This document shows positions 1,997 to 61,707 of a stretch of DNA of 64,000 nt, one piece after another. The position numbers were made by a program, and so were the translations under genes. Position 1 is the first letter of the stretch; the number at the start of each line of letters is the position of its first letter. The notes under the pieces are model-generated. The model was not told the origin of the DNA, did not search any database, and saw nothing but the letters and a program-made list of their open reading frames with translations. Where the stretch lies: positions 1 through 64,000 of IMG/VR virus record IMGVR_UViG_3300022700_000179; one strand, written 5' to 3'. The DNA is from a virus.

Positions 1997-2848
1997 ATGG
2001 GGAGCTTACGTGCTCCATATTTAATCCGCTATGCGGACGCTTACTACCGTGTTGCTGGAGTTAGGGATCTAGCACAAATAGTAGCGTCTTTGCTCTTCCG
2101 TTGGATTTCCGACGCTGGTATATCTAAGCAGCGGATACTGACGTGGCTGGGCAATTTATTTCGTACTGAGAAGTTGCAAGAGTATCGAAAAAACCGGTAC
2201 CATGATTCCTCTTCTCTACTACCTAAGGATTTGGTGGATCAGATCGCACAAGTTTTCTCGGAGTTATCCTCTGAGGGGGTGCTTTGGGGCGACTTCGTGA
2301 TGGAGCTTACCCGGGCCCTGGATAACCCACCACAGGGCTATGAGTGGATCACTCAGAGTGGGCAAGAATACCTAGTCCGCAAGACAGCGCGATCACGTGA
2401 GGAATTTCCTGTACGTGGTAAGAGGTTCATTGGGCGTGTGTTGATCGGGGTTTGGTGGGCTACCCCAAACACACGTTCCAGTGCAAACCGACGTTTACGT
2501 GAATTTATTCAAAATAATGGTGCTATATTTTACAGCAAAACCAACCGCTCTACTGGAATTAGGGAGTACGGTGGGTTTATCGTAGTTCCACATGTGTCCG
2601 CAGAAGGTGTTGGGATCACTCTTAACTCTCTATGTAAGAAAATGGCTGGTGACACTGGTTATTTTCACCTGTCTGCTGTAAAGCTGGACGGGTTGGCTGA
2701 GCCACGCCCGCTCAAACCAAGTGATCAATATCATATGCGATCCATTCGTAGTATTAAGTTCAATGACGAGTATACGCTTCCGGAAATAGTGAATGGTCAA
2801 GTTCCGGAATATCGCTCGTTACTTCAACTTCTAAGAAAGGCTGTTTGA
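1997..2848 (+). CDS. hypothetical protein with N-terminal shared tag motif
   Basis: 283-aa ORF; PYLIRYADAYYRVA. Confidence 0.75.
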   Translation: MGSLRAPYLIRYADAYYRVAGVRDLAQIVASLLFRWISDAGISKQRILTWLGNLFRTEKLQEYRKNRYHDSSSLLPKDLVDQIAQVFSELSSEGVLWGDFVMELTRALDNPPQGYEWITQSGQEYLVRKTARSREEFPVRGKRFIGRVLIGVWWATPNTRSSANRRLREFIQNNGAIFYSKTNRSTGIREYGGFIVVPHVSAEGVGITLNSLCKKMAGDTGYFHLSAVKLDGLAEPRPLKPSDQYHMRSIRSIKFNDEYTLPEIVNGQVPEYRSLLQLLRKAV

Positions 2849-3309
2849 TGATGCCTAAAGCACCAGATCAGATAAAGTTTCATGGGGCTCACTATATCCG
2901 TGCTGATATTTATTCTCCTAGTAAAGGCGATACGGAGATAAGTACGGATGGCCTGCTGGAAATTGACATGAGTTTGGACCCTGCTGATGTCGCCGGTCTA
3001 GCGTCACAATTGAGTGATATTAATGCTGCTTCTAAAAATGGTAGCAACATACCAGAATCTGTTGCGTACAAGTTAGCAACTGAGGCTAATGATGTACTTC
3101 AAGGGTTTGGTGTTGAGTCTCTTCCATCTAATCCTGGAGATATGGACACCCCTGCAATTTATGTGAACAGAGGCGATATGTACAACGGCACAATCGTGTG
3201 GGATTTTAATGATCAACTATTTTATCTAACAACGCCCGGCGACTGGCTTGCGGTCTGGGAGCAAAAACAAACTGAGGGGGGACAGCAAAGCGGACACACG
3301 TCGTATTAG
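2845..3309 (+). CDS. hypothetical protein with N-terminal shared tag motif
   Basis: PDQIKFHGAHYIRA; overlaps upstream stop. Confidence 0.75.
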   Translation: MMMPKAPDQIKFHGAHYIRADIYSPSKGDTEISTDGLLEIDMSLDPADVAGLASQLSDINAASKNGSNIPESVAYKLATEANDVLQGFGVESLPSNPGDMDTPAIYVNRGDMYNGTIVWDFNDQLFYLTTPGDWLAVWEQKQTEGGQQSGHTSY

Positions 3310-3320
3310 GAGGGAGGGTA

Positions 3321-3920
3321 ATGGATGTTTCTAGGGATCAATTGATGATACCGGATGGCAAGCAGGTACGTTTGCCTACCCCGCAAGACGCGCATCAAGG
3401 GACGACATACACAGACGATCGTTGGTCATTTACTATTGATAAGGACCAGGTTGTAGAAGTCACTGATCGTATGCATCGCGGGGATAATGCTGAGCCGATC
3501 GTGGCAGATCAGACAGGTTTCCTGTCTTTTGTGGCCAGAATAATGACAGCTGTGTACCCTTCTGATGTGGAAAGTCAGAAGCATTTTACCGTCGTTATAC
3601 AAGACGACCGTAAAGTAAACCAGACCTTCACGCAGCTTTTACAGCTATTGCGTAGAGACCACGATTCTTTGTATCGCCTTTTTCACTGTCTACTTTTGGG
3701 TTATGCTGCTTCCGACGGAATATCCGCGTACATGTCAGAAGTGCCAACTCGGTCACATGAGCAAATAATATCCAAATTTATGGAACGGTCGAACGAGTTT
3801 TTTGATTTTAGCGATATACACACATTCCTTTCTAGTTTCGATCTGGCAATAGATAGAATCGAAAAAGAGATCCGCCGGATGAGCGGAGAGGGGACTTTAT
3901 ATGTCGAAGTCGAGCAGTAA
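3321..3920 (+). CDS. hypothetical protein
   Basis: 199-aa ORF with strong RBS (GGAGGGAGG). Confidence 0.7.
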   Translation: MDVSRDQLMIPDGKQVRLPTPQDAHQGTTYTDDRWSFTIDKDQVVEVTDRMHRGDNAEPIVADQTGFLSFVARIMTAVYPSDVESQKHFTVVIQDDRKVNQTFTQLLQLLRRDHDSLYRLFHCLLLGYAASDGISAYMSEVPTRSHEQIISKFMERSNEFFDFSDIHTFLSSFDLAIDRIEKEIRRMSGEGTLYVEVEQ

Positions 3921-4248
3921 TCCTCCAAAAGCAATCCGATTTAACGGTGCCGTTTACCACTTGGCAGCGTTAGAAGATTTTGAATACACGACCGTACGTG
4001 ATCACACTTTAGTTGGTGAAGGTAGCCTTCTGTCGAGTACAATACATACTTTGCTTGAGCTTACTCAGGCGGTGGAAAAAGCTGGGGATGCTATGGAGAG
4101 TGAGGATTACGATGCCGCCGCACTTCAACTTTCTAGCAAAGAAGGCAATCCAGGTCCTGTTTTTACTAAACTACGGGCTACTATAAAGCATTTAATGGCG
4201 TTGGAACGTGCATCTAACGCCTTGCGAAGTATGAGCCAAAGAAAGTAG
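3901..4248 (+). CDS. hypothetical protein with N-terminal shared tag motif
   Basis: PKAIRFNGAVYHLA. Confidence 0.7.
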   Translation: MSKSSSNPPKAIRFNGAVYHLAALEDFEYTTVRDHTLVGEGSLLSSTIHTLLELTQAVEKAGDAMESEDYDAAALQLSSKEGNPGPVFTKLRATIKHLMALERASNALRSMSQRK

Positions 4249-4264: not shown

Positions 4265-5656
4265 ATGTCTGCTGCTTACCAAGTGACAGTTACAGGGATA
4301 CACGATTACAAAGGTCGTGGCGTTATTCGTAAATCTGATCTGTGGCATTTTTCTCAGCAAGTTTGGGGTTCAGCAGGTGACAGCGTGCCTGCCGCGCTTG
4401 ACGCTATGGGGGATGCTTTCTTTTCTTACTATCCTAAAGCGGCAATCGCCCTTCCACGTGGCAATAGCGGTATCGTGATTGTAACTCCCAGTGCAGCGGG
4501 TAGATTAAAAGACTACGTTCGTGATCCGCACGCTTTGGACAGTGGCAGGTATTTTGTACAGAATGACTACGCGGTGATCTACGTTAAGGAACTGCCAGCG
4601 TTGTCTGGTGATTACCCAGATGATCTTTACCCGTCGGATCCTAACGCGTATGTAGACGCCTTAGACCAGAATTTGAGGACAGGTCCGGATTTTGAATCCA
4701 GGGTGGATTTCCCTTGTACTCTACATAAGCACCCGGCCAACTATGTAGAGTACAACGGGGCAGTGTACAAATTAGCTCGTAAAACCGTGATGTATCATGG
4801 TACCTCTACTGGTGAAGACGGTGAGATCCTTCGAAGTATCCTAAAGAATGGCCTTATCCCAGAGCCGCCTAAGCGGGCGTACGATTCTCTTTATGGCGAT
4901 GATAGCGTTGATGTCTCCGCTATTGATCCACATACCCGTTACGTCATTATGCTAGATGAGTCTTTTGGTGGTGTATACACTACTGAAAAAGTAGGGATGG
5001 CAGAAAAGTATGCTAAGAACGCGGTTTTGGAATTCGGTGGTAATCCATTGTTGGTATCTTCGCAAGTTGAAACTAGATCTCCAGGAGTTACTTTAGACGA
5101 AGACACATTGTTTGGTGCACCCCTCATTAGGTTTTTAGATAGTAGTATACCTGGTGATGCAGCTGAGCAGTTCATCGCGATTGACGACGGGGAAATAGAT
5201 TTTATAGCACTAGGTCGTTCCTTTCTGGAATATTATTTTCCAAAGCACGATTTTTCGAAGCAAGAACTAATATATGCTTTACCTTCATTTGCCAAGGCTA
5301 TAGAATCCAGGTTTATGGCAGAGTTACTTGGCGACCATATTGATGATATAGAGAAAAAGCTACTTGAGATGGATGAAGCAGTACTTGGTGGTGACCTAGA
5401 TCCTTCTGAGTATATTGACGAGTATAGACACTATGGTGCGGAAGCTTTGAAGAAACTGAGGTTTTTAACTTATAGTGACAGGACCGTTAGGTCCACGTCA
5501 GCTCCTATCAGTTACCGTGGCGCAAATAGAATACTCGCGGTGGTTTCGGCGGATAGCACTTCAGTTACTATCCATTACGCGTACGACATGCGCGAAGCGA
5601 AAAAACTGGCCATGGCTTTAGGGGCAAATTCAAAAGAAGCCAAGAAAGGCATATGA
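4265..5656 (+). CDS. two-domain protein; C-terminal ADP-ribosyltransferase-like domain preceded by internal tag motif
   Basis: PANYVEYNGAVYKLA then MYHGTS...ILKNGLIP...GVYTT...AEKYA, typical ART-fold motifs. Confidence 0.6.
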   Translation: MSAAYQVTVTGIHDYKGRGVIRKSDLWHFSQQVWGSAGDSVPAALDAMGDAFFSYYPKAAIALPRGNSGIVIVTPSAAGRLKDYVRDPHALDSGRYFVQNDYAVIYVKELPALSGDYPDDLYPSDPNAYVDALDQNLRTGPDFESRVDFPCTLHKHPANYVEYNGAVYKLARKTVMYHGTSTGEDGEILRSILKNGLIPEPPKRAYDSLYGDDSVDVSAIDPHTRYVIMLDESFGGVYTTEKVGMAEKYAKNAVLEFGGNPLLVSSQVETRSPGVTLDEDTLFGAPLIRFLDSSIPGDAAEQFIAIDDGEIDFIALGRSFLEYYFPKHDFSKQELIYALPSFAKAIESRFMAELLGDHIDDIEKKLLEMDEAVLGGDLDPSEYIDEYRHYGAEALKKLRFLTYSDRTVRSTSAPISYRGANRILAVVSADSTSVTIHYAYDMREAKKLAMALGANSKEAKKGI

Positions 5657-6600: not shown

Positions 6601-7251
6601 TTATTTGTGCCAGTATTCTTTGACCAAAGTACTAAGGTTTTCTGCAGTTTGTGGAACTCCTGAATATCTGAAATTGGCTATCCCATCCGCAACGGCCAAG
6701 GCTAACCGTAATATCTCCGCTTTTTTAGCAAGACGTTCATCGCCTTCGGCCTTCGCGGCTTCTACAGCATCATAGGCGAGCTGCTCCAGGTTTTCAGACT
6801 GAATTTTCTGGCCTATCGACTCGATCATGTAGTCGACTTTTGTGGCCCCTTCAGCCCTGATGTACGTGGTACCTTTGTATTTTACTTTTGTTGGGGTAGC
6901 ACTAGCCTCGGCGGGTTTTTCCTGGACCGCTCTTTTCAAATACTCCTCTACCCTCCGAAAAATCTGGGCCTGTACTTTCTGAGTACTATTGATAACTTCT
7001 TTCAGCTCTTCTACGGCGTCTTTATACTCTTTGGGTCCTGCAGCAGCGCTCTTTGCTAATTCGTCGGTTTTAGACTCTAGTTCTTTTCTGTCTTGAATCC
7101 ATTCTTTCAGTTCGTTGTCTTTAGCAGTTAGTTCGTTAACAATTTGCTGGCCGGACTTACCGAGTTTTTTGTACGCTGTTGCAATATTGGATTTGGCCTC
7201 CTGCAATATTTGAGCATTTTCTTCTAGCCCAGATGTTATACGTATTGGCAT
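6601..7251 (-). CDS. coiled-coil protein with internal shared tag motif
   Basis: 216-aa ORF; PTKVKYKGTTYIRA. Confidence 0.75.
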   Translation of the reverse strand: MPIRITSGLEENAQILQEAKSNIATAYKKLGKSGQQIVNELTAKDNELKEWIQDRKELESKTDELAKSAAAGPKEYKDAVEELKEVINSTQKVQAQIFRRVEEYLKRAVQEKPAEASATPTKVKYKGTTYIRAEGATKVDYMIESIGQKIQSENLEQLAYDAVEAAKAEGDERLAKKAEILRLALAVADGIANFRYSGVPQTAENLSTLVKEYWHK

Positions 7252-7283: not shown

Positions 7284-7559
7284 TTACTTTGCTTTGTAAT
7301 CTAACAGATCGTCGGAAGTTTTGCTGAACAGTTGAGAGATTTTTCGCAAGTTTTCGTAGTCTTTGCCTAATCCTTGATTTTTTAAAAACAGCGCAAGACT
7401 ATCAATATCCCTGGAGATGTCGAGTGCGGCCTTGGCGGCGTCTTCTGAGGTCATCTGAGCGAGCACATACTCTTTGCCTGCAATTTTGATAACTGCTGGC
7501 TGTGCATCTGCCCGAACGTACACGTGACCTTTGAATTTGATCTTTTCTGGTTGTGACAT
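7284..7559 (-). CDS. small protein with two tandem tag motifs
   Basis: PEKIKFKGHVYVRA-DAQ-PAVIKIAGKEYVLA; RBS GGAG. Confidence 0.75.
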   Translation of the reverse strand: MSQPEKIKFKGHVYVRADAQPAVIKIAGKEYVLAQMTSEDAAKAALDISRDIDSLALFLKNQGLGKDYENLRKISQLFSKTSDDLLDYKAK

Positions 7560-7604: not shown

Positions 7605-7622
7605 AGACACTATATAGTAACT
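7605..7622 (-). promoter_or_regulatory. candidate late-promoter motif
   Basis: AGTTACTATATAGTGTCT on the minus strand, matching motifs at 35512, 42626 and 47797. Confidence 0.4.
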
Positions 7623-7651
7623 ACCAAATCACCAACGAGCGTGGTATAGTT

Positions 7652-7736
7652 GGAAGCATGGCTGAGCGGGTTAAGGCGCCGGTCTCGAACACCGGTGGTC
7701 CGAAAGGACCCGTGGGTTCGAATCCCACTGCTTCCG
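7652..7736 (+). tRNA. tRNA-Ser(CGA)
   Basis: cloverleaf GGAAGCA/TGCTTCC, anticodon arm CCGGT-CTCGAAC-ACCGG, long variable arm, GTTCGAATC; no CCA. Confidence 0.95.
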
Positions 7737-7756
7737 TAGTACTGTAAAAGGTATAT

Positions 7757-8806
7757 ATGGCACAAAACCACTACGCCGGAATTGGCACCCGTAGACTGGC
7801 TCCTGCTCAGCAAAAGCTGTGTGGTACAATAGGGTCTTACCTTGCCAAAAAGGGTTGGATTTTGCATACCGGTGCGGCAGAGGGTGCGGATCAGTCTTTT
7901 GCTAAAGGGGCTCTAATAGGTGGCGGCGAACTTGTTTTGCATCTTCCGTGGCCGTCCTATGAGGAGAACTGGTTTAGTAAAATACCATCTCAGTATTCTA
8001 GGAGCATCTCGGTCGACATTTTAGAGATTGATCGGCGGGGTGGTGTATTTGATAAAGAGGCGTACGATTCGGTGTTTGATCTGCATCCAGCTCCCGAGAG
8101 ATTAAAACGTGGTGCAATAAGTTTACACGCCCGGAACTATAGAATTCTTTTTCCTAAAGGGTCGCCAGAGCCGGTACAGTTTGTAGTTGCTATTCCTTCT
8201 CCTCGCGGTGGGGGTACCGCACAAGGACTGCGTATTGCAGAGTCTCTTAAAATACCGACGGTGCGTTTAGATCAACTCTCGGCTAGAGAGGCCCGGCGTA
8301 CAATCGATAGTCTGCTGAGCGGTTCTTATGGTCAGCGACCTGACGAGCGTGGACAGAACCTATTTTATGCGGCATTACCTGATGTACTGCCTCCAGATAC
8401 TAGTATAGCGCAAGCTCAAGCATACTTGAAGCAAGGAGCTATAGGTGGCACGAGATGCCCTTGTTGCGGCACGCCGGCTAAGGTCAAAGATGTACGTTTT
8501 ACCTTGGAGATGGCGGCTTTTCTAACGTACCTGGTCCGTAGGTATGAGGCAGACGAATTCAACTCGGAATTGGTCTCTGCCAAGCCCGCTGATGCTTCGT
8601 TGGGGAAAGATCTTCAGTTATGGAAACTTATCGAAATGACCCAAAAATACAAAGCGTACTTGTTTCGGCCGACTGAACGTGGTATACAGTTCGTGCGAAA
8701 CGAGATTCGTGTGCCTGATCGCGTAGCCGTATTCAATGGTAGGGTGGTTGGGTGGGGTGAAAAGTTGGGATATATAAAAGATATAGCTGGTTCTGATGGG
8801 TTATAG
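7757..8806 (+). CDS. SLOG (DprA/YspA-like) domain protein with C-terminal Zn/HTH-like domain
   Basis: YAGIGTR...LHTGAAEGADQ...GGGTAQG SLOG motifs; C-terminal CPCCG. Confidence 0.7.
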   Translation: MAQNHYAGIGTRRLAPAQQKLCGTIGSYLAKKGWILHTGAAEGADQSFAKGALIGGGELVLHLPWPSYEENWFSKIPSQYSRSISVDILEIDRRGGVFDKEAYDSVFDLHPAPERLKRGAISLHARNYRILFPKGSPEPVQFVVAIPSPRGGGTAQGLRIAESLKIPTVRLDQLSAREARRTIDSLLSGSYGQRPDERGQNLFYAALPDVLPPDTSIAQAQAYLKQGAIGGTRCPCCGTPAKVKDVRFTLEMAAFLTYLVRRYEADEFNSELVSAKPADASLGKDLQLWKLIEMTQKYKAYLFRPTERGIQFVRNEIRVPDRVAVFNGRVVGWGEKLGYIKDIAGSDGL

Positions 8807-9035
8807 GCCTAAAAACTGTCGGGAGAACAATTTGCTTTGTTATGCAATCCATTTTATGGAGGTAGATGCCGATGGGAATGAGGCACCATATTGCACAGTT
8901 GCGCAGCAGGTTAGATCAGGAGTGGAGCAAGCCCCGACCTGTTTGCTCATGTCCAGATTTTACCTTTGGGGAGCTCCACCCATATTTATTCTGCATCAGT
9001 GCCCAGTTTGCAAAGGATGGCTGACCTTTGATTAG
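8796..9035 (+). CDS. small Cys-rich hypothetical protein
   Basis: 79-aa ORF overlapping upstream stop, CPVC. Confidence 0.45.
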   Translation: MGYRPKNCRENNLLCYAIHFMEVDADGNEAPYCTVAQQVRSGVEQAPTCLLMSRFYLWGAPPIFILHQCPVCKGWLTFD

Positions 9036-9078
9036 TTGATTCGCTTAGGGTACCTCAAAGGTAAATGAATTACGTAGT

Positions 9079-9162
9079 GCCGGTTTGGTGGAATTGGTAG
9101 ACACGCTGGTTTTAGGTACCAGTGGCCGAAAGGCCGTAGGAGTTCGAGTCTCCTAGCCGGCA
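9079..9162 (+). tRNA. tRNA-Leu(TAG)
   Basis: cloverleaf with CTGGT-TTTAGGT-ACCAG, long variable arm. Confidence 0.95.
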
Positions 9163-9165
9163 ACT

Positions 9166-9672
9166 GTGAACGGAATCGTATCGTATCTATTGGAAACCGC
9201 TGTCCAGCAGACTGGAAACTTTGGTTTGGTGCCCAAACTAACTCACACTGAACTGAATAGGGTGTGTAGTTCGTTGGAGGTAGAGCGCCACAAACCAAGG
9301 GTTTTAGTGGGTAACGTGGACACCTTTATACGGTTTTTTGATCCAGAGCTTTTTGGTAGCGAGTGTTACGATCCAGCTGGGCGGAAGAATCTACTAGTGT
9401 ACGGAGACTTAGGCTTTATGAACGGGCTTCGGGTCTTATGTTTGGGATCTATTGTGGATCCACTGTTTGCCGGACTTGCAGCACCCAGAGTCTTTCTTTG
9501 TGGTGGCTCTGAGCATCTTGGTTTACGAGCTACTTACTCGCCACTTACATCTCATTCTGTAAATAAGACCATCTTTAATCAGGATGAGATTGGCTACTAC
9601 TTTTGGGAGACGATATCGACTACACTCGTTGACAGCAACCGAGTTCAAGGATTGGAGTTTTCAACTAACTAA
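9166..9672 (+). CDS. truncated paralog of the major capsid protein (C-terminal half)
   Basis: near-gapless manual alignment to residues ~217-381 of 62806-63951, e.g. YDPAGRKNLLVYGDLG vs YSPIEKHELAVEGKLG. Confidence 0.6.
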   Translation: MNGIVSYLLETAVQQTGNFGLVPKLTHTELNRVCSSLEVERHKPRVLVGNVDTFIRFFDPELFGSECYDPAGRKNLLVYGDLGFMNGLRVLCLGSIVDPLFAGLAAPRVFLCGGSEHLGLRATYSPLTSHSVNKTIFNQDEIGYYFWETISTTLVDSNRVQGLEFSTN

Positions 9673-9867
9673 TTCGGTTCTGAAATTGGATATTCCATGT
9701 TTCTGAAAGCTCTTCGAGAATCCCTCCCTGGCATTTTTCTGGTTGTCTCTGCTTCAGCTTTAGGTTACATAACTCCAGATTTTCATGTGGTCTACGCTTG
9801 GATTGTAGTGTTCGGGATCTACGCTGCCGTAGTTTTGTCACCATTGCAGTAACCAAGGAGCGCGTCT

Positions 9868-10071
9868 ATGGATATATTAACAGAGAGTGAGAAACCGGAG
9901 ATTAGACAGGTAATCAGACAGATTAACGAGATATTTGAGTCGGGTCTTCAGAACACCAAGAATATACGATGTCCACGTTGTGGTACTGTTATTAGTTATT
10001 GGAAAGACATTGATGGTGACGAGCAGTGTTACGCTGACTGCCCAGCGGACTCTTGCAGTTTTAGCTTCTAA
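9868..10071 (+). CDS. small Zn-ribbon protein
   Basis: RBS AAGGAG; CPRC...CPADSC. Confidence 0.6.
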   Translation: MDILTESEKPEIRQVIRQINEIFESGLQNTKNIRCPRCGTVISYWKDIDGDEQCYADCPADSCSFSF

Positions 10072-10086
10072 TCATTGTTATCTTAT

Positions 10087-10173
10087 GGTAGGTTGGCCGA
10101 ACTGGTGAAGGCGCGGCACTGGAAATGCCGTGTACGGTGTAACGTACTGGGGGTTCGAGTCCCCCACCTACCG
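10087..10173 (+). tRNA. tRNA-Ser(GGA)
   Basis: CGGCA-CTGGAAA-TGCCG anticodon arm, long variable arm, GTTCGAG T-loop. Confidence 0.93.
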
Positions 10174-10176
10174 TGA

Positions 10177-10249
10177 GCGGGAGTAACTCAATTGGTAGAG
10201 TGTCAGCCTTCCAAGCTGAACGTTGCGGGTTCGAGTCCCGTTTCCCGCT
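10177..10249 (+). tRNA. tRNA-Gly(TCC)
   Basis: GCGGGAG/TTCCCGC, TCAGC-CTTCCAA-GCTGA. Confidence 0.95.
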
Positions 10250-10265
10250 TTCAGGAGCTAGCAGT

Positions 10266-11628
10266 ATGTATAAACCTTCAGAAATAATAAAGTATGCTGG
10301 CGGTTACTATCGTCTGGTGGAGGAGTACATTTCGTACCATAACGCGATCTACAAGCTTGCCAGCCTCGCGGAGAAAGAGGTGGAGAAGCTTTTCAAGGAG
10401 ATCTTGCCTGAAACTGGTTTTGCCGGTCATGTGTTTATGGTTTATTGCATTCAAGGATGACGTGAACTACGGTGGGAAAACATTCAAAACTAGTGGTGCC
10501 GGGATTGACGTAGCTGAGTCTCAGAAAGAGGGATTTCCGGACCCAAACTCCAGGCAGCGCGAGGTTGAGTTTGGGACAATTTTTGAAGATATGGAACGGA
10601 GGGACTTTACCGTAAACCAGTTGATGAAGGATATGGCGACGGGAAAGATAATAGATTTATCTGGGCAGGGGGTTAGTGATATTAAGAAAGGTGTTTTGCG
10701 TACGCACCCCAAAGTGAAACCTGACAAGGTTTTTCAGGATGATCCCTTGCGGATGATGCGTTTAGTCCGTTTCATTGCCAAATATGGATGGAAGGCAGCG
10801 CCTGAAGTCACTGAAGCTGTAAAGAGAAATGCGGACCGTATTGAGATAATTTCTGGTGAGCGCATTCAGGGTGAGCTAGTCAAGATTATGAACTTAGGCA
10901 AGACGGCTCAAGCTGTTCGTTTTATGCGCGACACGGGACTTTTGAAGTATGTGTTGCCTGAGATTGACGCTCTTAGAGGTATAGAGCAGGCAAAGGAGCA
11001 TCATTCTGAGGGTGATGTATTTGAGCATACCATGCTTGTTTTGGAGAATGCTAAACCTACATTAACTGCGCAGTTGGCTGCACTGCTGCACGATGCGGGC
11101 AAGCCTACTACACAAGAGTTTATTGGGGATAAGATACAATTTTTAGGACACGATGCAGTTTCCGGTGAGATCGCCGAAGCTATGCTGCGCCGACTTAAGT
11201 TTGATAACAAGACTATCAAGAAAATACGTTTTCTGGTTGAGAATCATATGCGTATGATCGACGCGGATCGATGGGGCCCTAAGGCGGCGCGCAAATTCAT
11301 TCGCGAAATTGGTGAAGAGCTTGAAGACTTGTTAGATTTGCATGATGCTGATTCCGCTGGGTCTATTACCCCAGAGGGTACACCAGCCAAGTCAAGCGGT
11401 CCGATTGTACGAGAGAAGCTCAAGCAAGTACAGGAGATACCAGTACGCACGCAGCCTATACTTGATGGTAATACTGTAATGGACATCCTCGGCATTACTC
11501 CTGGACCAGAGGTAGGGAGGGCTATGAACTGGCTACAGGAAAAAGTGGACGGCTACGCCGATGAGGGAAAAGAGATGTCCCCTGAAGAGGCCGCTAGACT
11601 TCTACGGACTGAATATACGATAGGGTAG
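10266..11628 (+). pseudogene. cca: CCA-adding enzyme/poly(A) polymerase-family nucleotidyltransferase with HD domain, disrupted by deletion and frameshift near 10435-10442
   Basis: RRDFTVN, DDPLRMMRLVRF, ERIQGEL, HD motif ALLHDAGK; N-terminus (ATG 10266, RBS AGGAG) is in another frame and the GGxVRD/DxD motif is missing. Confidence 0.8.
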
Positions 11629-11638
11629 CCCCAGTAGT

Positions 11639-51746: not shown

Positions 51747-54086
51747 ATGTCTATGTTCCGAATTCGATATGATATGACCGAGGGTAGACGGCTGCGCCGA
51801 ATACAAAATCGACATGCCGGATTTATGCGATCACACAGTGGTTCGCCTAAATCGAAAATGCGTCATGGGGCGGCTATGACCAACCTGACAGCACCCATGC
51901 TGGCAGGAGGTGGATTACATCAGAGATACTCCCCAGTATGGGAACGTGCAGAGGATCCAACTCTAGCTGAAGATTTTCTGCCTGCCGATAGTCAAACTCA
52001 AAATAAAATATTTCGTAACTTAATAATGTTTGACGCCATTGCTGGACCAGCAACAGAGTATTGGAAAGATCTGGCGTTTTCACCGAATGTTATATTGAGC
52101 GGGCTGGATGATGATAAGGTACTGCAATTTTACCAAGATGCGTTAGCTGCTAGTGGCATCTTGCCTATGATGCCTTCTTTGCTTTCTGACTACCTTACGT
52201 TTGGTAAGTTTGTGTTTCACATGCTTATGGATGAGAGCAAAGGTTATTGGTATGAGACCATTCCACATGATCTAGATTATGTGAGTATCAAAGTATCCCC
52301 AATACCTAGTATGCCTCCATTAATTGATTACCAGCCTAGCGAGGACCAGCGTGAGTGGGCAACCAGTTCCGATAATCGAGTGGTGGAACAGCGGCGGGAT
52401 ATGGACCCGGTTTTGGTAAACCTTCTCGCGTCTGGGCAGCCGATTCCTTTGGCCCCTGAGAATACCATGTTCCTCCCTAGGATGGTATTTGCAAATGATT
52501 ACTACGGAACGTCTTATCTTACTCGTGTAATGCCTTTCAAGATATATGAGAAAGCTGTTTTAGACGCGTCCATTGCTGGAGCCCGTCGCCGGGCCGGGCC
52601 ACTTTGGCATATTACGGTATGGCCAGATGCATCAGACGATGAAATGTCTGAAATTTTAGATATGTTTTTTGCGGCGGAAGAAGACCCAATTGGGGGCAAG
52701 GTGGTGACCCGTGAAGGAGTTATAGTAAACTCATTAGGCGGAGGTTCTGGAGAATATTGGAAGCTTTCTGACGAGTGGTCTTTTTTATCAGAAGCAAAAA
52801 TGCGGGCGTTGGGAATTTCTGAAACGTTTCTTACAGGCGAAGCAAACTGGAACTCGATGGAGGTTATCCTATCGACGTTCCTCGAGAAGGTTCGTGCTGT
52901 ACGCAACTATTTCACTCAGAAAATTATTCTAGAGAAGATTATATACCAGTTAGCTCAGATGCATGATATCCGTCACCGTTCCGAGGCGGAGTTAGCCCAT
53001 CGTATCCGTACTGGTAAAAAGAGCCGGATTGATAGCCAGCCCGAGTTCAAGCTTCCATCCATTGAATGGGATAAGGCGCTTTCTCCAGTTGCAGATCAAG
53101 ATTATATGGCGATCCTGAACGAGTTGGAAGAGAAGGGATTACCAATTCCGATTCGGATGCGTGCTCAAGTGGCGGGGTTTGATATCGACAAAGCTATGAA
53201 TTCGTTTGAGTCCGATTTGGAGACGCACAAAGAAATATACGAGCATAAAGTTGCGCTTGCTGAACTCAAAAAGCAGTACGGCTTTGATGATTCAGGTCAG
53301 TACACTGGCGGAGGCGGGGAGCTAGGCGGTGGTTTAGGTGAGCTAGGAGGTGGGTTGGGTGAGGGACTTGGTGGACTTGGTGGGGGTGAACTGGGAGGTG
53401 GAGAACTTGGGGGTGGGGGCGAACTTGGTGGAGGTGAACTGGGAGGTGGGGGAGGAGTTGAAGAGGTACCCCCATCGGCACCAGAGGGTGGACTTGAAGG
53501 TTTTGGGGCAGGAACTGAGAAATCTAGATTCCCAGTTAAAAACCAGCACAAGAGGTTTGTTGGTAATACCAGACCACATGTGGTGAACAGCCTACTCGAT
53601 CGAATTGCTTCAGTTCCTATTTGGGACGATCGTAAAGAGCTTTTTGGATTGACGCAGCGTAAGATTGCTAAGATATTAGACCGAATTGATAAAAGTGCTC
53701 CAGATATAGACCACAGAAAACAGTTCGCCAGAAAAGTGTTTTCGAAGCTGAAGAGGAACGAGGGCTTAGATCGTAGGCAAGCACAGGTTGTGCAATATCT
53801 GGCATTTCGTTTGGGATTGGTACCCCCTGTCCCAATTCCAGAAGATGATTTTGAGCCTCTGAATAAGTACTTACTCGACAAGGTCCGTGAGGACGGATTG
53901 AGTAAAGAAATTACAAAAGAGCTGAACTACGTCTCCCGTATTTCAGAGGCATGTGGTAGGGAGCACCCGTATCAAATCAAACATTCGGATTTCAATCCTG
54001 TGCTCACTCGGTTTGACCGGGCCCTTTCCGATAAACAAATTCTCACGGGTCTTACAACCAGTGTTTCTCCTTTTATTAAAGGATAG
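51747..54086 (+). CDS. probable portal protein
   Basis: position after TerL; YGTSYL, ALGISETFLTGE portal-like motifs; Gly-rich linker. Confidence 0.65.
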   Translation: MSMFRIRYDMTEGRRLRRIQNRHAGFMRSHSGSPKSKMRHGAAMTNLTAPMLAGGGLHQRYSPVWERAEDPTLAEDFLPADSQTQNKIFRNLIMFDAIAGPATEYWKDLAFSPNVILSGLDDDKVLQFYQDALAASGILPMMPSLLSDYLTFGKFVFHMLMDESKGYWYETIPHDLDYVSIKVSPIPSMPPLIDYQPSEDQREWATSSDNRVVEQRRDMDPVLVNLLASGQPIPLAPENTMFLPRMVFANDYYGTSYLTRVMPFKIYEKAVLDASIAGARRRAGPLWHITVWPDASDDEMSEILDMFFAAEEDPIGGKVVTREGVIVNSLGGGSGEYWKLSDEWSFLSEAKMRALGISETFLTGEANWNSMEVILSTFLEKVRAVRNYFTQKIILEKIIYQLAQMHDIRHRSEAELAHRIRTGKKSRIDSQPEFKLPSIEWDKALSPVADQDYMAILNELEEKGLPIPIRMRAQVAGFDIDKAMNSFESDLETHKEIYEHKVALAELKKQYGFDDSGQYTGGGGELGGGLGELGGGLGEGLGGLGGGELGGGELGGGGELGGGELGGGGGVEEVPPSAPEGGLEGFGAGTEKSRFPVKNQHKRFVGNTRPHVVNSLLDRIASVPIWDDRKELFGLTQRKIAKILDRIDKSAPDIDHRKQFARKVFSKLKRNEGLDRRQAQVVQYLAFRLGLVPPVPIPEDDFEPLNKYLLDKVREDGLSKEITKELNYVSRISEACGREHPYQIKHSDFNPVLTRFDRALSDKQILTGLTTSVSPFIKG
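53306..53457 (+). repeat. coding low-complexity repeat (GGGEL)n
   Basis: GGGGELGGGLGELGGG... in the portal C-terminal region. Confidence 0.8.
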
Positions 54087-54568: not shown

Positions 54569-54967
54569 ATGCCTAAATGGAATCGTGTATGGCGCAATGT
54601 CAATGATCAGTGTCCACAATCTTGTATAAATTTTACTAATCCGGCTTTACGGCAGCAGTCCGTAGTACTAGATCAGTTTCCGTCTACTGTAGACAATATG
54701 TCGCAAGCTATGCGGATTGTAGCTGAGGGGATTGCTGAACGTGTTGGTGGAAAATCTATTGTTGTTAAGTCCGAATCTGAGCGTATACATGACGTTAGCA
54801 TGCGTCTATCGAGGGATGTAGCTAGTTTGGTTTCTATAAATTTTAGTTTTGGTGCCCAAGCAAACTATCCAGTAGAGGTTACTTATAACTATAGGGATGA
54901 CTCTGGTACCGCTAAATTCGGTGATATAGCTGAGGTGGTAGAATGGCTGGCCGTCCGCTTAAGGTAA
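54569..54967 (+). CDS. hypothetical protein
   Basis: 132-aa ORF. Confidence 0.6.
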   Translation: MPKWNRVWRNVNDQCPQSCINFTNPALRQQSVVLDQFPSTVDNMSQAMRIVAEGIAERVGGKSIVVKSESERIHDVSMRLSRDVASLVSINFSFGAQANYPVEVTYNYRDDSGTAKFGDIAEVVEWLAVRLR

Positions 54968-55194
54968 TGGAAGTCTTGTCCAATTCACCACCAAAAAAGT
55001 TAGTATATAAAGGGCGTACTTACGTTCTTGCTAAGACACGAGAAGACTTAATGTGGGAACAGGTAGAGAGACTTTTGTCTCAAATGTTAAACACGGTCAA
55101 GTCGGATCGTCCTTCGATTAGCAAAAAGAGCGGAGTCGCCGGTACATATCAAGAGCTTAAGGTCTTCCTCAAAGATCTAGGCGTCACGCTCTAG
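54967..55194 (+). CDS. small protein with tag motif
   Basis: PKKLVYKGRTYVLA. Confidence 0.65.
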   Translation: MEVLSNSPPKKLVYKGRTYVLAKTREDLMWEQVERLLSQMLNTVKSDRPSISKKSGVAGTYQELKVFLKDLGVTL

Positions 55195-55277
55195 CTTCAA
55201 CTCACACACCTCTCTGCCGCGACATTATCTGAATTACCAGACTGGTGTGTTGTATACCTGCAACATCAGGAGGTCTC

Positions 55278-57587
55278 ATGGCAACAGAGGGTAAAACGAG
55301 AGATGGACCGTCAATGACTCCAGAGGAGAAATACGCCTCTGAGTTGCTTGATACGGCGGCAAAGAAAAAGAATAAAAAACCCAAAAAGAAAAAGAAGACT
55401 GACCACGAAACCAACGTCCAGAAGTTTTTGCGTGACTTCTTCGAATTAGGGAAACCTAAGAAGAAGACCAAGAAAACTAGTCCCGGACTACCTGGTTTGT
55501 ATTGGAGAGGGGTCGAAGATTCACCCTTCTCTTATCAACCCGGTGGTGATGGTGGAGGGGATGGTGGGGGCGGTGGAAATGGTGGGTCGGCTGCGAGTGT
55601 TGCCGAGACCGAGGAGGAATTGATGCGCCAGCTCCGAAAGAAGATGGATCTAAAGGGCAAAAAGGCGGGTGGAGAGAACCCCTATGTTGGTTGGGATAAT
55701 CTTCCTAAGGGATGGACCAAAGAGTCCGTAGAGAAGTTCTGGGGTTCCCTGACTGGTGATCATGAGCACAAGTTCACAGAGTGCAGGAAGAAAATGGAAG
55801 GGAACGTAGACGATCCCGATGCTTTCTGTGCGTCGTTAAAGGATATGATGAAGGGTACTGAAGAGTGGCGGGGTAAAGGCAAAGGCGCTGCTAGTACCTC
55901 TTCACGACCGTATAGTGCTGATTCACTCGATGAAATGGGCTTCGATCCTGGACGTGCTCAAAACGAGTTCCGCCAAGAAACTGGACCGGTAGAAGAAGCC
56001 ATCCAAATCGAAGAAACCCCACCTACTGAAGTCGATCCCGAAGAAGTTGAGCCCGTTGACATGGAGGACGTATCTGCGAATCCTCCCCAAAGGGCAGATA
56101 TGGCATCAGGAGAAGAGACACAGAACGTGCCCGACGGGCCAGAAGCAATGGAGGATCCGCAGATGCAAATCCACAAGGGAACCGAAGAAATTTTTGAAGT
56201 AGATCCAAGTATGGTTGAGGAGCTAAACGTAGCCGTTGACCTGGAAGTTGGCGAGGACGATGAGGATGATTACGCGTCGCCTGTCCCGAGTGAAGGGGAT
56301 GAGATGGAAGCCGTAGAGGACGAGGAGGATGACCTGCTCGGTGACGAAGAAATTCCAGAGGTAAGCGACGAGGAAGTCGAGTACGAGCTGGAGATGGAGG
56401 CTCCTGAGGAAGATTTGGGCGAGATGGAGGAGGAAGATGAGCTGGAGGAGGCGTGCGGATCGAGAGGGGATCGCGCGAAGCTGTATAATTCTGAGCAGCC
56501 TGTCCTTGTAAAGGAAGATGATGTTGAAGTTGTTGATGAGGGACGTGGACACGCCGGTGCAACCCCTGATTCCCCGCCGACTACCTTAGAGCCCGAAGAT
56601 GCGGAGGCTCCTACACTCCCACAAAGCGACATCAAGGTACCTGCGATCGATCCTGCGGAAAAAGAGAGCACTGACGTGGTGTATGAGGTCGTAGTGCCTG
56701 CGTCGTCTTTAACGGACGAGTCGATCGATCGTATCGAGTTGGCACGCTACGGCGAGAACTCAGACGATCCAATGTATATCGTCCTCTTGGACGGCGATCC
56801 CGTTGCTAAGATTGCACTTTCAGACCAAAACCTCCCCGATGAGCACCGAGAGACCTTCCTCGATGACAACTATCCCAACTTTGTCCTTGAGGGCATGGAG
56901 CAGTTTGGTGTCCAGGCGACTTTGAAGACGGTTAACGCCCGTTTCTACGCGGCCCGTGCAAATGAGGGTGAAGTAGCCGAGTCGGTTAAGGCCCGTGTCG
57001 CCTCTGAGATGCACGAGGCGCGGCAGGTAGAGATCGGTCGGTTGAAAGACGATCTGCTGAATGTGGCCTCGGTAGTTCTGCAGGGAACTATGAAAAATTA
57101 CCTGTTGGACAACCCCCTGCGTGATGCACTGATCTCACGGTTCCATCGTGCCGGTGTGGATCCCAGTGCTGCGGTTGACGAAATTGACGATGCCTTCCGT
57201 TCAGCTGGCCAGGATTTCTTCAACACAGTTCTTGAAACAGCTGACGAGTGGCTCGGCCTCCCCAAGGAAGCCCTTGAGCACCATGTCCAGAAAATTCAGG
57301 AAATGTCGCATAGACATCCTGGATACGACATGGTTCAGGGTTACAACGAGGACGACATCCCCGAAGCAGTCGAGCCCACCCCGGAACCTCGTCAGTATGC
57401 TGCACAGGCGGCTGCACCTGCCCCAAGTGTGCCCAAGAACGTTCCCTTGCGCAGCGCGGCCCCACGAGCACCCTCCGGTGGTGGATTCAAGCAGGATAAA
57501 GAGTATTGGAAGCGTCAGCTGAACCTCAGCGGTCGTGTAGCGAACGCTTCTTTGGCTCAGTATCAGCTCCGTAACCCCAAACAGTAG
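55278..57587 (+). CDS. large acidic head protein, scaffold-like
   Basis: RBS AGGAGG; very Glu/Asp-rich; between portal and protease. Confidence 0.6.
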   Translation: MATEGKTRDGPSMTPEEKYASELLDTAAKKKNKKPKKKKKTDHETNVQKFLRDFFELGKPKKKTKKTSPGLPGLYWRGVEDSPFSYQPGGDGGGDGGGGGNGGSAASVAETEEELMRQLRKKMDLKGKKAGGENPYVGWDNLPKGWTKESVEKFWGSLTGDHEHKFTECRKKMEGNVDDPDAFCASLKDMMKGTEEWRGKGKGAASTSSRPYSADSLDEMGFDPGRAQNEFRQETGPVEEAIQIEETPPTEVDPEEVEPVDMEDVSANPPQRADMASGEETQNVPDGPEAMEDPQMQIHKGTEEIFEVDPSMVEELNVAVDLEVGEDDEDDYASPVPSEGDEMEAVEDEEDDLLGDEEIPEVSDEEVEYELEMEAPEEDLGEMEEEDELEEACGSRGDRAKLYNSEQPVLVKEDDVEVVDEGRGHAGATPDSPPTTLEPEDAEAPTLPQSDIKVPAIDPAEKESTDVVYEVVVPASSLTDESIDRIELARYGENSDDPMYIVLLDGDPVAKIALSDQNLPDEHRETFLDDNYPNFVLEGMEQFGVQATLKTVNARFYAARANEGEVAESVKARVASEMHEARQVEIGRLKDDLLNVASVVLQGTMKNYLLDNPLRDALISRFHRAGVDPSAAVDEIDDAFRSAGQDFFNTVLETADEWLGLPKEALEHHVQKIQEMSHRHPGYDMVQGYNEDDIPEAVEPTPEPRQYAAQAAAPAPSVPKNVPLRSAAPRAPSGGGFKQDKEYWKRQLNLSGRVANASLAQYQLRNPKQ

Positions 57588-57679: not shown

Positions 57680-58510
57680 ATGTTGACTCTTCCCAATATA
57701 TATACAAGCTCTCACAGAATAGTTTCTAGCGGTCGCGGGATACATGTTGGTGACACTTTCTTTTCCCAAACACAGAATGGGGACATATATTACGATGAGC
57801 CTAATTTTATAGAGGGCCATCGGCTAGAAACGCTTCGCGCAAACGGCGGTTCTAGCATACGTATAGCTGGAACAGAACTAGGCAAAGTATCACAAAACTG
57901 TGCTTGCGGTTTTTTGGACGTGTCATGGTTACCTTTGGCCGCGAAAGCGTACAAGATAAGTCCCGATATTAAAGATTATGTCTTGGTAGACATCCCAATT
58001 GTACTGGCGAACGTACCTAATAGAAACGGCGACTGCTTTACTTACAAAGAACTCACTACCTTCCGTCCAATTATTGGCATGCCGGCGTTCAAGACGTTCT
58101 ATGGCAAGCCCGCACACCAGGATCACGATAATATGGATCCGACGCGTGCAAAGGGGGTTATTTTCGATGCAACACTTACCCCCTTCCGCGGCGTTTGGCA
58201 TGTAAAAATACTAAAAGGCTTCGACCGTACCAAGGATCCGCGTCTTGCAAAACTGGTTCGCCAGAAATCACGCATTGGCCATTCAATGGGTGCGTTGGTT
58301 GAGCGGACTGAATGCGGGTTACCATGGTGTAACTTCCATTCAGATGGGCGTATAACTTGTGACCATATTAATGGAGGTCAGGGTAAGGGGGATATTATTA
58401 AGGGACATCTAGTCTATGAGAACATGATGGACTACTATTTTGTGGAATGTAGTTCAGTAGAAGATCCAGCATATCCGATCGCTCTTTCTCGAGAAATATG
58501 GGGAGTGTAA
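57680..58510 (+). CDS. prohead protease
   Basis: GKPAHQDH, GVIFDA, HSMGA, ECSSVEDPA (assemblin/HK97-type motifs). Confidence 0.75.
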   Translation: MLTLPNIYTSSHRIVSSGRGIHVGDTFFSQTQNGDIYYDEPNFIEGHRLETLRANGGSSIRIAGTELGKVSQNCACGFLDVSWLPLAAKAYKISPDIKDYVLVDIPIVLANVPNRNGDCFTYKELTTFRPIIGMPAFKTFYGKPAHQDHDNMDPTRAKGVIFDATLTPFRGVWHVKILKGFDRTKDPRLAKLVRQKSRIGHSMGALVERTECGLPWCNFHSDGRITCDHINGGQGKGDIIKGHLVYENMMDYYFVECSSVEDPAYPIALSREIWGV

Positions 58511-58514
58511 CGAA

Positions 58515-59402
58515 ATGAATCCTCCGTCCCAGATAAAGTATAAGGGCACCATTTACAAGCTTAGATCTGCAGGGGATGTTCAGGTCTCTCCGGGCAGTCC
58601 AGTGGGACCGGAGGGGGTATTATTGATTGAACGTCAATACCCTACGGAATCTCGGGCATTGTATATCGACAACGATGGTGATTTCTTTGCCAAAATAAAG
58701 CTCAATTGGCACAAGAGTAATGTGTTTGACGAGTTAACATTTGATCTTTCTCCGGCAGGAGCGAAAGAGTTTTTTGATAGCCTCAAAACAGAAAGTGACG
58801 GTAAGCTGAGCGCTAAGATACCGGACGAGCAAGTTAGGCAATTGTGGGGGCCAGCTGTGCCAAAAACGCCGGAGGGTGTGGATCCCAAAAAAGTCATAGA
58901 TGTAAGTGGGCACTACATAAAGGTATCTGATCTTCCGGCTGACATAAAGCGGGAAGCTGCATACACATTTGAGGGTCTTCTTCGGGAAGAATTGGCAAGT
59001 ATAAGTAAAATAGAAGGTCGATTCTGCTCCGATCCTTTTAGCGTAATGGGCTTGCGCTACAATGTTCCAGAACATGTAGTTCAGCTGTTTGCAGAGACGC
59101 TTACAAACGCTATGAACGAGTATTTAAGAGAGCAATTCAACACACAGGCTACGGTAGACATAAATGTAGCGGACTCCTGTGGTCCTGTAGACGGGCATGG
59201 GGGTATATACGTATTCGGTAATGGTAGAGAGGAACTTAATAACTTACGTGTACATTTAGAGGGGAACGTTTTGTTACCTGTATGGCGGGAAGTGTGGAAT
59301 AGGTATCAGCAGGGAGAGATACCTGTTGGAGAAAAGCAAAGAGCGTTGGCTTCTTTCAAAGTCAAAGTACTAGCTGCAGTTCGTCCGGAGAACGGTCAGT
59401 AG
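58515..59402 (+). CDS. hypothetical protein with tag motif
   Basis: PSQIKYKGTIYKLR. Confidence 0.7.
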   Translation: MNPPSQIKYKGTIYKLRSAGDVQVSPGSPVGPEGVLLIERQYPTESRALYIDNDGDFFAKIKLNWHKSNVFDELTFDLSPAGAKEFFDSLKTESDGKLSAKIPDEQVRQLWGPAVPKTPEGVDPKKVIDVSGHYIKVSDLPADIKREAAYTFEGLLREELASISKIEGRFCSDPFSVMGLRYNVPEHVVQLFAETLTNAMNEYLREQFNTQATVDINVADSCGPVDGHGGIYVFGNGREELNNLRVHLEGNVLLPVWREVWNRYQQGEIPVGEKQRALASFKVKVLAAVRPENGQ

Positions 59403-60159: not shown

Positions 60160-60171
60160 TCCAGGAGGCAA

Positions 60172-60648
60172 GTGATGCCCAAGATTCCAGAGGAGATACA
60201 GTATAAAGGGTGCCGCTACGTATTAGCTGGGCGTAAACGTGGGCGCAAATCTGCTACTATTAAGGACAGTGGCTACCGACACGATGGCATCTTGTTTTAC
60301 ATAAATGTTCTCTGCCGAAGTAAGACAGGGAACGACTTGCCGTCTAGATTTGCAACTAGAGTAAATACAATCCCGGAAGGTATCTCACTTAATGAGCAGG
60401 AAACCGTAGCTGCGAAAAAAGCCATTGGAGATAGTGGCAAAAAGAAAGACAGCAATCTGTGGCACATACTAGTACGAGATGAGGGTTGGTTTTGGGCGGA
60501 TGATCCTAAGAGTGTACAAAACGCTGTACCGATCCAGCAGACGTTGGATCTCGTTGAAAAGTATCGCGAGTGGGACCGCCCAGGAACCAATCCTTTAATC
60601 TATGCGGAGATCGTCACAAAAGTTGTTGGCGGCCGTAAAAGGGATTAG
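60172..60648 (+). CDS. hypothetical protein with tag motif
   Basis: PEEIQYKGCRYVLA. Confidence 0.7.
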   Translation: MMPKIPEEIQYKGCRYVLAGRKRGRKSATIKDSGYRHDGILFYINVLCRSKTGNDLPSRFATRVNTIPEGISLNEQETVAAKKAIGDSGKKKDSNLWHILVRDEGWFWADDPKSVQNAVPIQQTLDLVEKYREWDRPGTNPLIYAEIVTKVVGGRKRD

Positions 60649-60651
60649 TAC

Positions 60652-61707
60652 GTGTTAGTAGTCTCCTCTGACAATTTCTCTGACTACGTCAAGGAATACG
60701 ATCGCCGTGTTCTTGAGGGAATCAGTAAGAAAAATGAGGGAGAATATGGTGGTATAGACTTGATTGTTGAGGATTGGGGTGGGTCTCCCACTTTCCCAGG
60801 TATCGCACTCCTCATTAAAAGATTCGACTTGAATCTGCCTAGTACGGTAGAGGAACTGCAAGAAGATTTTGATGATGTGGCCGATCTGATTAGCTCGTTA
60901 GAGTTTAAGGTAATGAATAAAGTAGTTCGGCCTATTAACAATCTCAGTGAGGTAACAAGGGTAGGGGGCGTTTACTCCGTTGGATGGGATGGAAGAAAAC
61001 TAGCTCTTATGTTCAATGCCGGCCCATCTGAGGTAGAAGATCTAATGTCGGTGAAGGATAGGATAAACGTTGCTACTACACAGCAAGAAAATGCTGAGCT
61101 GCTCCGATGTGTACGTTCAGCGGTAGACCACATTAAGTCCGCGGACCTCGGCAGAGCTTCAGAGGTAGATGCTCAGCACCTCAATGAGGCAATAGACATA
61201 CTCGAAATATGTGGACTTTCAGACAAAACTAAGGACGTACGGTTGGCGCTCAAGAGTTTTGACAGCAACATAGAATCCGCTAGAGAGTATATTTATGGCC
61301 CTACTGGCCATGGCACAAACCGTGGCGCCCTGTACGATTTAATCACTTTCGCTGAGTCCCTCGAGAAAAATGTTGAGTCCGGACCGTTAGAGCAAGGTAA
61401 TTCCAGGAGTCTTCTAATGCACCCGATTTCGCCTTACATCGTCTATCAAGGTTCGGTATACAAGAAGGTAGCTTACGACCTCCCTAAGGATATGAAAGGC
61501 GTAGAAAAATGTAAGCCCGAGGATTTTGATCCTAAGCGTGATCCTGCCGACCAAGAATGGTGTACGTACAGTTACGACGGTAAACTGCGCGGTCGTTTTA
61601 GAAAGAAGAAGGACGCGTTACAGCACAAAGTATTTTTGATTAACATGTATTGGCAGAAGGGAAAGGGCAAGAATAAACCTAAGGGTAAATATTGGCGTAA
61701 GAAGTAG
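60652..61707 (+). CDS. hypothetical protein with internal tag motif
   Basis: ISPYIVYQGSVYKKVA. Confidence 0.7.
   Translation: MLVVSSDNFSDYVKEYDRRVLEGISKKNEGEYGGIDLIVEDWGGSPTFPGIALLIKRFDLNLPSTVEELQEDFDDVADLISSLEFKVMNKVVRPINNLSEVTRVGGVYSVGWDGRKLALMFNAGPSEVEDLMSVKDRINVATTQQENAELLRCVRSAVDHIKSADLGRASEVDAQHLNEAIDILEICGLSDKTKDVRLALKSFDSNIESAREYIYGPTGHGTNRGALYDLITFAESLEKNVESGPLEQGNSRSLLMHPISPYIVYQGSVYKKVAYDLPKDMKGVEKCKPEDFDPKRDPADQEWCTYSYDGKLRGRFRKKKDALQHKVFLINMYWQKGKGKNKPKGKYWRKK

Follow-up and report, generated by a model that had tools for sequence, protein, structure and literature searches.

A portable 17-residue tag, predicted to form a beta-hairpin, on unrelated proteins of an uncultured phage clade: a possible docking module in head assembly

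The IMG/VR virus record IMGVR_UViG_3300022700_000179 is a contig of 105,713 bp, which we analyzed, starting from its first 64 kb (64,000 nucleotides; hereafter, the window), for a short peptide motif, the tag, that recurs in otherwise unrelated open reading frames (ORFs). The original prediction, made from the letters of the window, placed 20 copies of the motif in 17 ORFs and regarded it as a label that loads proteins into the phage head. Translated in six frames, the window contains 11 exact matches to a strict regular expression for that motif, and the rest were recovered with a looser expression, while a hidden Markov model (HMM) of 21 positions, seeded from these matches, confirmed all 17 ORFs, with 18 strong and 2 weak second copies. 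On the whole contig, the HMM detected 33 copies in about 25 ORFs, scoring 16.8–29.4 bits, including 15 further copies past the end of the window (contig 64.1–72.2 kb), directly after the capsid gene, in two-copy proteins and one four-copy protein. The remaining matches, among them a few degenerate second or third copies beside strong ones, scored below 8 bits, except for one of 11.5 bits in the large terminase (TerL). A copy lies within the first 30 residues in 18 of the 25 tagged proteins, only internal or C-terminal copies occur in the other 7, and several proteins have two to four copies; in many, tandem copies are spaced 2–5 residues apart or one copy sits at each terminus.

At the left end of the window, N-terminal tags on the plus strand are found in ORF 1997–2848 (283 aa; tag at 2006–2068, 19.4 bits), ORF 2845–3309 (2854–2916, 24.5 bits), and ORF 3901–4248 (3916–3978, 25.3 bits), followed by an internal tag in ORF 4265–5656 (4727–4789, plus strand, 19.9 bits), which stands right before a probable ADP-ribosyltransferase (ART)-fold domain. 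Two carriers on the minus strand come next: ORF 6601–7251, with an internal tag (6841–6903, 21.9 bits), and ORF 7284–7559 (91 aa), whose N-terminal tag (7497–7559, 29.3 bits) has the top score in the contig and is accompanied by a degenerate second copy (7452–7502, 3.5 bits) at the spacing seen in other tandem copies. Further along the plus strand, a 64-aa ORF (10266–10460) upstream of the body of a CCA-adding enzyme, and in a different frame from it, has one tag at 10269–10331 (21.6 bits) and a degenerate second at 10323–10373 (7.6 bits); ORF 11639–12223 is tagged near its N-terminus (11708–11770, 21.2 bits), and the tag at 21477–21539 (24.8 bits) lies at the likely true start of ORF 21393–21971. 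The N-terminal tag of ORF 31987–32349 (31996–32058, plus strand, 20.2 bits) has a diverged equivalent at the same place in the ortholog from a complete related genome, G001, whereas ORF 34577–35425, on the minus strand, is tagged at its extreme C-terminus (34580–34633, 17.0 bits). Back on the plus strand, two tandem N-terminal tags open ORF 35575–36174 (35578–35685, 17.3 and 20.0 bits), and a single one opens a topoisomerase IB (ORF 36191–37705; tag at 36200–36262, 21.5 bits).

The last four carriers in the window, all on the plus strand, lie among the head genes. An 83-aa protein just upstream of a scaffold-like gene is tagged at 54982–55044 (25.0 bits) and has tagged orthologs at the same position in 6 relatives; a search for a deeper alignment returned one homolog, and its ORF, earlier cited as starting at 54967, in fact starts at 54943 (54943–55194). 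The gene directly after the protease, ORF 58515–59402, begins with the tag (58515–58577, 18.6 bits), and the gene at that position is tagged in relatives too. ORF 60172–60648 is tagged N-terminally (60178–60240, 24.3 bits) and ORF 60652–61707 internally (61420–61482, 16.8 bits), before a C-terminal module that it has in common with ORF 69238–70095.

These genes are interleaved with untagged head genes, likewise on the plus strand. Upstream are TerL (48799–51291; phrog_17415, E = 4.3e-93) and the portal (51747–54086; phrog_16240, E = 2.1e-85), followed by an acidic, helical protein (55245–57587) that appears scaffold-like from its position and composition, the head maturation protease (57680–58510; phrog_18299, E = 4.6e-51), a virion structural protein (62010–62780; phrog_16710, E = 9.9e-13), and the major capsid protein (MCP; 62806–63951), recognized from its tblastn matches to the capsid proteins annotated in PaBG, GR11A, and Lu11 (about 29%–30% identity). 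MCP, portal, protease, and the other proteins originally named as untagged indeed have no copy, apart from the 11.5-bit match in TerL, which we rejected as an artefact of the seed expression, as it lacks the flanking features of the tag and is absent from the G001 ortholog. The stretch from the portal to 73.5 kb has 19 copies in 12 of its 22 genes, with 4 tagged ORFs between portal and MCP and 8 between MCP and 73.5 kb, a layout repeated in relatives. Across the rest of the plus-strand block, 13 of 84 genes are tagged (12 found by script, plus the C-terminal copy in ORF 34577–35425, missed by a coordinate filter), and none of 58 in the remaining 32 kb of the contig; for the enrichment in the head block, Fisher p = 1.5e-6 (computed with 12/84).

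The surroundings of the tagged genes contain several other features. ARAGORN called thirteen tRNA genes interspersed with tagged and untagged ORFs at 7651–22382, a tmRNA gene at 13756–14126 with tag peptide ANDNNVPMEVAEAA, and an odd tRNA-like sequence at 32362–32438 on the minus strand. Untagged neighbors at 32–37 kb (32906–33643 on the minus strand, 37838–38422, 33887–34384 on the minus strand, and 31141–31653) include matches to DUF7873 (E = 4e-94), an NYN RNase domain, PTH2 (weak), and a response-regulator receiver domain. Outside the window, a 237-aa ORF (contig 86441–87154, minus strand) weakly resembles the C-terminal part of the capsid protein over a local stretch of 64 residues (33% identical, pairwise E = 1e-6).

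The tag occurs far beyond chance expectation. An expression independent of the HMM, [IVL]x[YF]xGxxYxx[AV], had 25 matches in the called proteins, where 500 shuffles gave 0.16 on average and never more than 2, and the 29 matches in called genes at HMM scores of at least 12 bits had no counterpart in 40 shuffled sets or in reversed sequences; chance is excluded. From 95 distinct copies in the contig and its relatives, the consensus is [ST]-x-[PA]-P-x-x-[IVL]-[KR]-[YF]-[KRN]-G-x-x-Y-[VRK]-[LR]-[AV], in which Y14 never varies, G11 is found in 94 copies, and P4 in 79. The best-conserved positions include the hydrophobic I7, Y9, Y14, L16, and A17, and K or R is frequent at positions 8, 10, 15, and 16. 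Upstream flanks are rich in S, T, and K and downstream flanks are acidic, and the linkers between tag and protein body are usually either rich in S, T, A, and P or acidic; the final Ala is followed by E in 21 copies, by D in 19, and by A in 21, so that E and D together account for 42%. At the nucleotide level, by contrast, synonymous sites vary (Y14 is encoded by TAC 23 times and TAT 10 times, G11 by each of its four codons) and copies are on average 42% identical, which argues for selection on the peptide and rules out that what is conserved is a repeat in the DNA or an RNA element.

Structure prediction suggests a small independent unit. With a 12-sequence alignment of tandem-tag proteins, AlphaFold2 modeled each copy as a two-stranded hairpin (pLDDT about 70), with strands at residues 7–10/13–16 and 25–28/31–34 followed by long helices. 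The tag is thus predicted to be a self-contained beta-hairpin of ~17 residues with a two-residue turn at K/R-G, and hairpin geometry would place I7, Y9, Y14, and L16 on one face. In the model of the 463-aa protein of ORF 4265–5656, the tag has low confidence and is not packed confidently on the adjoining well-modeled domain; it does not look to be part of that domain's fold. Complex prediction with the tag profile against MCP and the C-terminal domain of the scaffold-like protein scored 0.00, a non-answer that leaves the question of binding where it was.

The majority of tagged proteins are orphans that contain charged regions of low complexity, and fusion to enzymes, as originally claimed, was borne out for a topoisomerase IB, a probable ART-fold protein, and a cREC protein. 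Topoisomerase IB matches Pfam Topoisom_I over residues 185–380 (E = 8.4e-15), and its G001 ortholog (43% identical) also begins with a tag. The cREC carrier combines that domain with DUF5661; among 108 carriers from relatives, Pfam and PHROG matches were confined to DUF5661 (2), cREC (1), AAA_33 (1), and a few weak ones. An AAA_33 kinase and a weak DSP phosphatase match are among the tagged proteins of these relatives.

In ORF 4265–5656, residues about 172–463 (window 4778–5653) have no Pfam match, and their structural matches are almost exclusively ADP-ribosyltransferase folds. The best are Tpt1/KptA (Z = 7.0–8.2, root-mean-square deviation about 3 Å over 79–89 residues; top match Z = 8.2, 3.0 Å, 84 residues), followed by pertussis S1, Rhs ART toxins, and PARPs (Z = 5–7), and in BFVD by two phage G proteins (E = 2e-4). 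Nine homologs have the invariant motifs HGT, ESxGGxY, ETR, DED, and YRGANRI. The region is probably an ADP-ribosyltransferase-superfamily domain, with Z-scores that are moderate and below the level considered safe for the tool. In 8 homologs of the whole protein (30%–64% identity), the tag always directly precedes the conserved domain and the region upstream of the tag is different or absent, and this constant junction beside a variable region indicates that the tag is a conserved, portable module.

The CCA-adding enzyme, by contrast, had been counted as a tag fusion and, as assembled, is not one: its body (10294–11628) is out of frame with the tag ORF, which starts right after a tRNA-Gly gene, and its Pfam PolyA_pol head-domain match begins only at profile position 54. 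Candidate explanations for the frame break (10176–11628) are a frameshift, misassembly, a pseudogene, and a split gene.

Two further short modules recur among proteins of the head block. The four-tag protein (66984–69239), whose copies are separated by disordered linkers, has in common with the scaffold-like protein a module LPKGW...DDPxAFC (contig 68979–69143 and 55692–55871, respectively; pairwise E = 3e-9), which also occurs in tagged proteins of relatives. Another, Cys...DP...Q-W-C-x-Y-x-x-D-G...K-x-D-A, is located at the C-terminus of ORF 60652–61707 (61480–61704) and the N-terminus of ORF 69238–70095 (contig 69238–69420; pairwise E = 7e-12), as well as in an environmental two-tag protein, P0006.

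The tag extends through a clade of related phages. In 14 IMG/VR loci with capsid proteins 75%–92% identical to that of the contig, there are 80 copies around the capsid gene, and the gene order and tag positions of the head block are conserved. The complete genome of one of these, G001 (349,793 bp, with terminal repeats), contains about 34 copies in 29 ORFs, clustered at 174–181, 217–220.5, 259–263, and 276–293 kb of its plus-strand block, whereas its minus-strand block (9–147 kb), which encodes DNA polymerase A, RNR, the A subunit of topoisomerase IV/gyrase, and UvrD, has a single weak match of 10.7 bits. Orthologs in G001 of topoisomerase IB, the post-protease gene, and the genes at 31987, 60652, and 72094 keep the position of the tag despite 22%–43% identity elsewhere. 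A tag subtype, I-R-V-N-G-x-x-Y, with Val for Tyr9 and Asn for Lys10, was seen in relatives and not in the present contig; in G001 it occurs in four adjacent small ORFs beside topoisomerase IB (217.8–219.6 kb).

Beyond this clade, the tag was not found in the cultured jumbo phages PaBG, GR11A, Lu11, BcepSauron, and RHEph12 (capsid proteins 25%–30% identical) in a search that did detect the tags of G001. A profile search of 1.84 billion representative proteins returned 39 matches at E ≤ 0.001, nearly all environmental hypothetical proteins in which typical copies occur two to four times; three of the matches, to P0007, P0033, and the Asgard archaeal P0027, were rejected as false positives, since these are long proteins built of repeats whose weak scores add up. 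In none of the 25 carriers of the contig or the 108 from relatives is the tag covered by a Pfam or PHROG family, a PDB profile search gave chance matches only (E of at least 0.46), PDB sequence search and ESM Atlas look-up gave no family and no meaningful look-alike, and we found no description of the motif in the literature. We regard the tag as real, undescribed, and clade-specific, with a function that is plausible but putative.

What that function might be can be approached from the form of the tag and from the company it keeps. Because it is a small, linker-flanked, portable hairpin with a conserved hydrophobic and aromatic face on unrelated carriers, the tag would be well suited as a docking module for one common partner, and we tentatively favor, with some reserve, the reading that it docks its carriers to such a partner during head assembly. 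A partner in the head is suggested by the concentration of tags among portal, protease, scaffold-like, and capsid genes, by conserved synteny and the mostly N-terminal position of the copies, by the module that the four-tag carrier has in common with the scaffold-like protein, and by the near-absence of tags from the replication block, along with the parallel to the capsid-targeting sequence (CTS) of phage T4. The most likely partner would be a component of the prohead during assembly, be it scaffold or core or the shell's inner surface, and the face formed by I7, Y9, Y14, and L16 would be its docking surface. Through it, the tag may recruit fast-evolving internal head proteins together with a few enzymes (topoisomerase IB, the Tpt1/PARP-like ART-fold protein, and the cREC protein), and proteins with two to four tags may bind multivalently and could act as additional scaffold or as glue. 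That the tag docks at all, which partner it would dock to, and that its carriers are packaged and ejected are all matters of inference. Of the modular hairpin label as originally conceived, the part that stands is its presence on unrelated proteins in N-terminal, internal, C-terminal, and tandem positions and its enrichment in the head-morphogenesis block.

The putative head role draws on gene neighborhood, conserved synteny, and one common promoter-like motif, and several observations weigh against it. The promoter-like motif, GTTAC-N3-TATAGTGT, occurs in 4 copies (7606–7621 on the minus strand, 35513–35528, 42627–42642, and 47798–47813), each 42–53 nucleotides ahead of the start codon that opens an operon; two of the four operons are tagged, a third contains TerL and the portal, and the fourth, at 42.7 kb, consists of unknown genes. 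These four are the only copies in the contig and none was found in G001, and the motif was rejected as a marker of co-regulation, for which it is weak evidence. The virion location of tagged proteins is itself putative, and since the five cultured relatives do not have the tag, their virion proteomes (that of PaBG lists only 14 proteins) carry no information on tagged proteins. No fixed residue of the kind cut by a protease was found after the tag among the 95 distinct copies, where the specificity of the phage's own protease is not established. Roughly one tagged gene in two is found not in the head block but near genes for tRNAs and RNA repair, and the recognizable cargo enzymes are of RNA-repair or NAD type, for which a cytoplasmic RNA-repair hub would be an equally good explanation.

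The last two points lead to the strongest rival, in which the tag docks its carriers to a hub other than the capsid, such as a host factor, a chaperone, a translocase, or a phage replication or RNA-repair assembly, with Ro60/Y-RNA and RtcB reportedly among the products of the phage. Such a hub would agree with the RNA-repair or NAD-related character of the Tpt1-like ART-fold domain, the cREC protein, and the ORF upstream of the CCA enzyme, and of the AAA_33 kinase and DSP-like phosphatase in relatives, and internal and multiple copies would fit a docking peptide that is retained. We nonetheless consider it unlikely, as the enrichment peaks between portal and MCP and just after MCP, the charged, low-complexity orphans that make up most carriers are typical of internal head proteins, and one of them has a module in common with the scaffold-like protein. 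A direct interaction with nucleic acid appears distinctly improbable. The hairpin could be a small binding element that tethers proteins to RNA or DNA through exposed tyrosines and flanking K/R, and its aromatic and basic composition, its fusion to topoisomerase IB and position upstream of the CCA enzyme, and its multiple, AT-hook-like copies are compatible with this; the best-conserved positions, however, are hydrophobic rather than basic, most carriers have no nucleic-acid domain, and in G001 the DNA polymerase A, topoisomerase IV/gyrase A subunit, and UvrD helicase are untagged within a 140-kb replication block that is otherwise marked by one weak match.

Two other explanations concern what the hairpin itself might do. 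Hairpins could pair with each other by beta-sheet formation, so that multi-tag proteins cross-link the tagged set into a network or condensate, possibly the head core or an inner body; the many two-copy proteins, with copies in tandem or at both termini, and the four-copy protein with its disordered linkers would suit this arrangement, but single-tag proteins are the majority and we think homotypic pairing very improbable. Least probable of all, and hardly to be expected, is that the tag is a signal for processing or turnover by a head or cellular protease rather than for localization. T4-type proteases cut after L/I-x-E (PMC5694885), and the frequent E or D after the final Ala and the acidic character of the next 10–15 residues recall such sites; yet no single residue is conserved after the tag, and cleavage at internal copies would cut enzymes apart, as in the ART-fold protein, where the tag stands right before the catalytic domain.

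If docking in the head is nevertheless taken as the working reading, a bolder form of it can be stated, which we regard as possible but doubtful: by means of a retained, multivalent hairpin label, the phages of this clade would fill the capsid with more than 25 unrelated proteins, subject to rapid exchange and delivered along with the DNA, among them topoisomerase IB and RNA-repair or NAD-utilizing enzymes, as an expandable payload whose mechanism would be nearer to encapsulin loading than to the cleaved leader of T4. Should the tag be a head-docking label, huge phages would be shown to equip their virions with a large, changeable set of enzymes by way of one portable 17-residue module, the likely injected proteome of an uncultured phage clade could be read from sequence alone, and a short tag of this kind could help to load foreign proteins into capsids. 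Were the partner not the capsid, the tag would still represent a system for sorting or docking proteins that has not been described before, with about 30 clients in each genome. In both cases, the motif, which curated family libraries lack, could enter them as a new family.

Several known systems invite comparison. In T4, it is through the CTS that small core proteins, internal proteins, and the ADP-ribosyltransferase Alt reach the prohead core (PMC5694885). Like the tag, the CTS (of IPI–III and Alt) is a short peptide common to otherwise unrelated proteins. In both systems, some carriers are encoded next to the head genes (portal, protease, scaffold, and MCP) and the rest in clusters elsewhere, and the cargo includes an ADP-ribosyltransferase-fold enzyme, a probable one in the tagged set. 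The CTS stands at the extreme N-terminus, near which most copies of the tag also appear to lie. The sequences (MKTYQEFIAE for the CTS, P-x-x-I-K-Y-K-G-x-x-Y-V-L-A for the tag) are unrelated, and the parallel drawn in the original prediction is a partial one: unlike the CTS, the tag is a predicted beta-hairpin that also occurs internally or C-terminally and in up to four copies per protein, no fixed protease site was found after it, it has about 25 carriers in 106 kb, and its targeting role is putative. The giant heads of phiKZ and SPN3US would resemble that of the present phage in their many fast-evolving internal proteins, and the N-terminal regions of their head ejection proteins are thought to direct them to the prohead (PMC5694885). 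Those regions are propeptides of at least 100 residues, cut at AxE/SxE, in paralogous families, whereas here a 17-residue module sits on non-homologous proteins. The cargo-loading peptides of encapsulins are short docking peptides that are retained, as the tag would be, and like the tag they occur at either terminus and on diverse cargo encoded next to an HK97-fold shell gene; encapsulin, however, is a compartment and not a virus, its motif is unrelated, and binding of the tag to a shell is putative. We know of no encapsulin counterpart to the multiple copies and large cargo set of the tag. By this comparison, the tag would be closest to the T4 CTS in its proposed role and to encapsulin cargo-loading peptides in its form, while belonging to neither by sequence, and it is set apart from both by its predicted beta-hairpin, its presence in up to four copies per protein, and the size of its client set.

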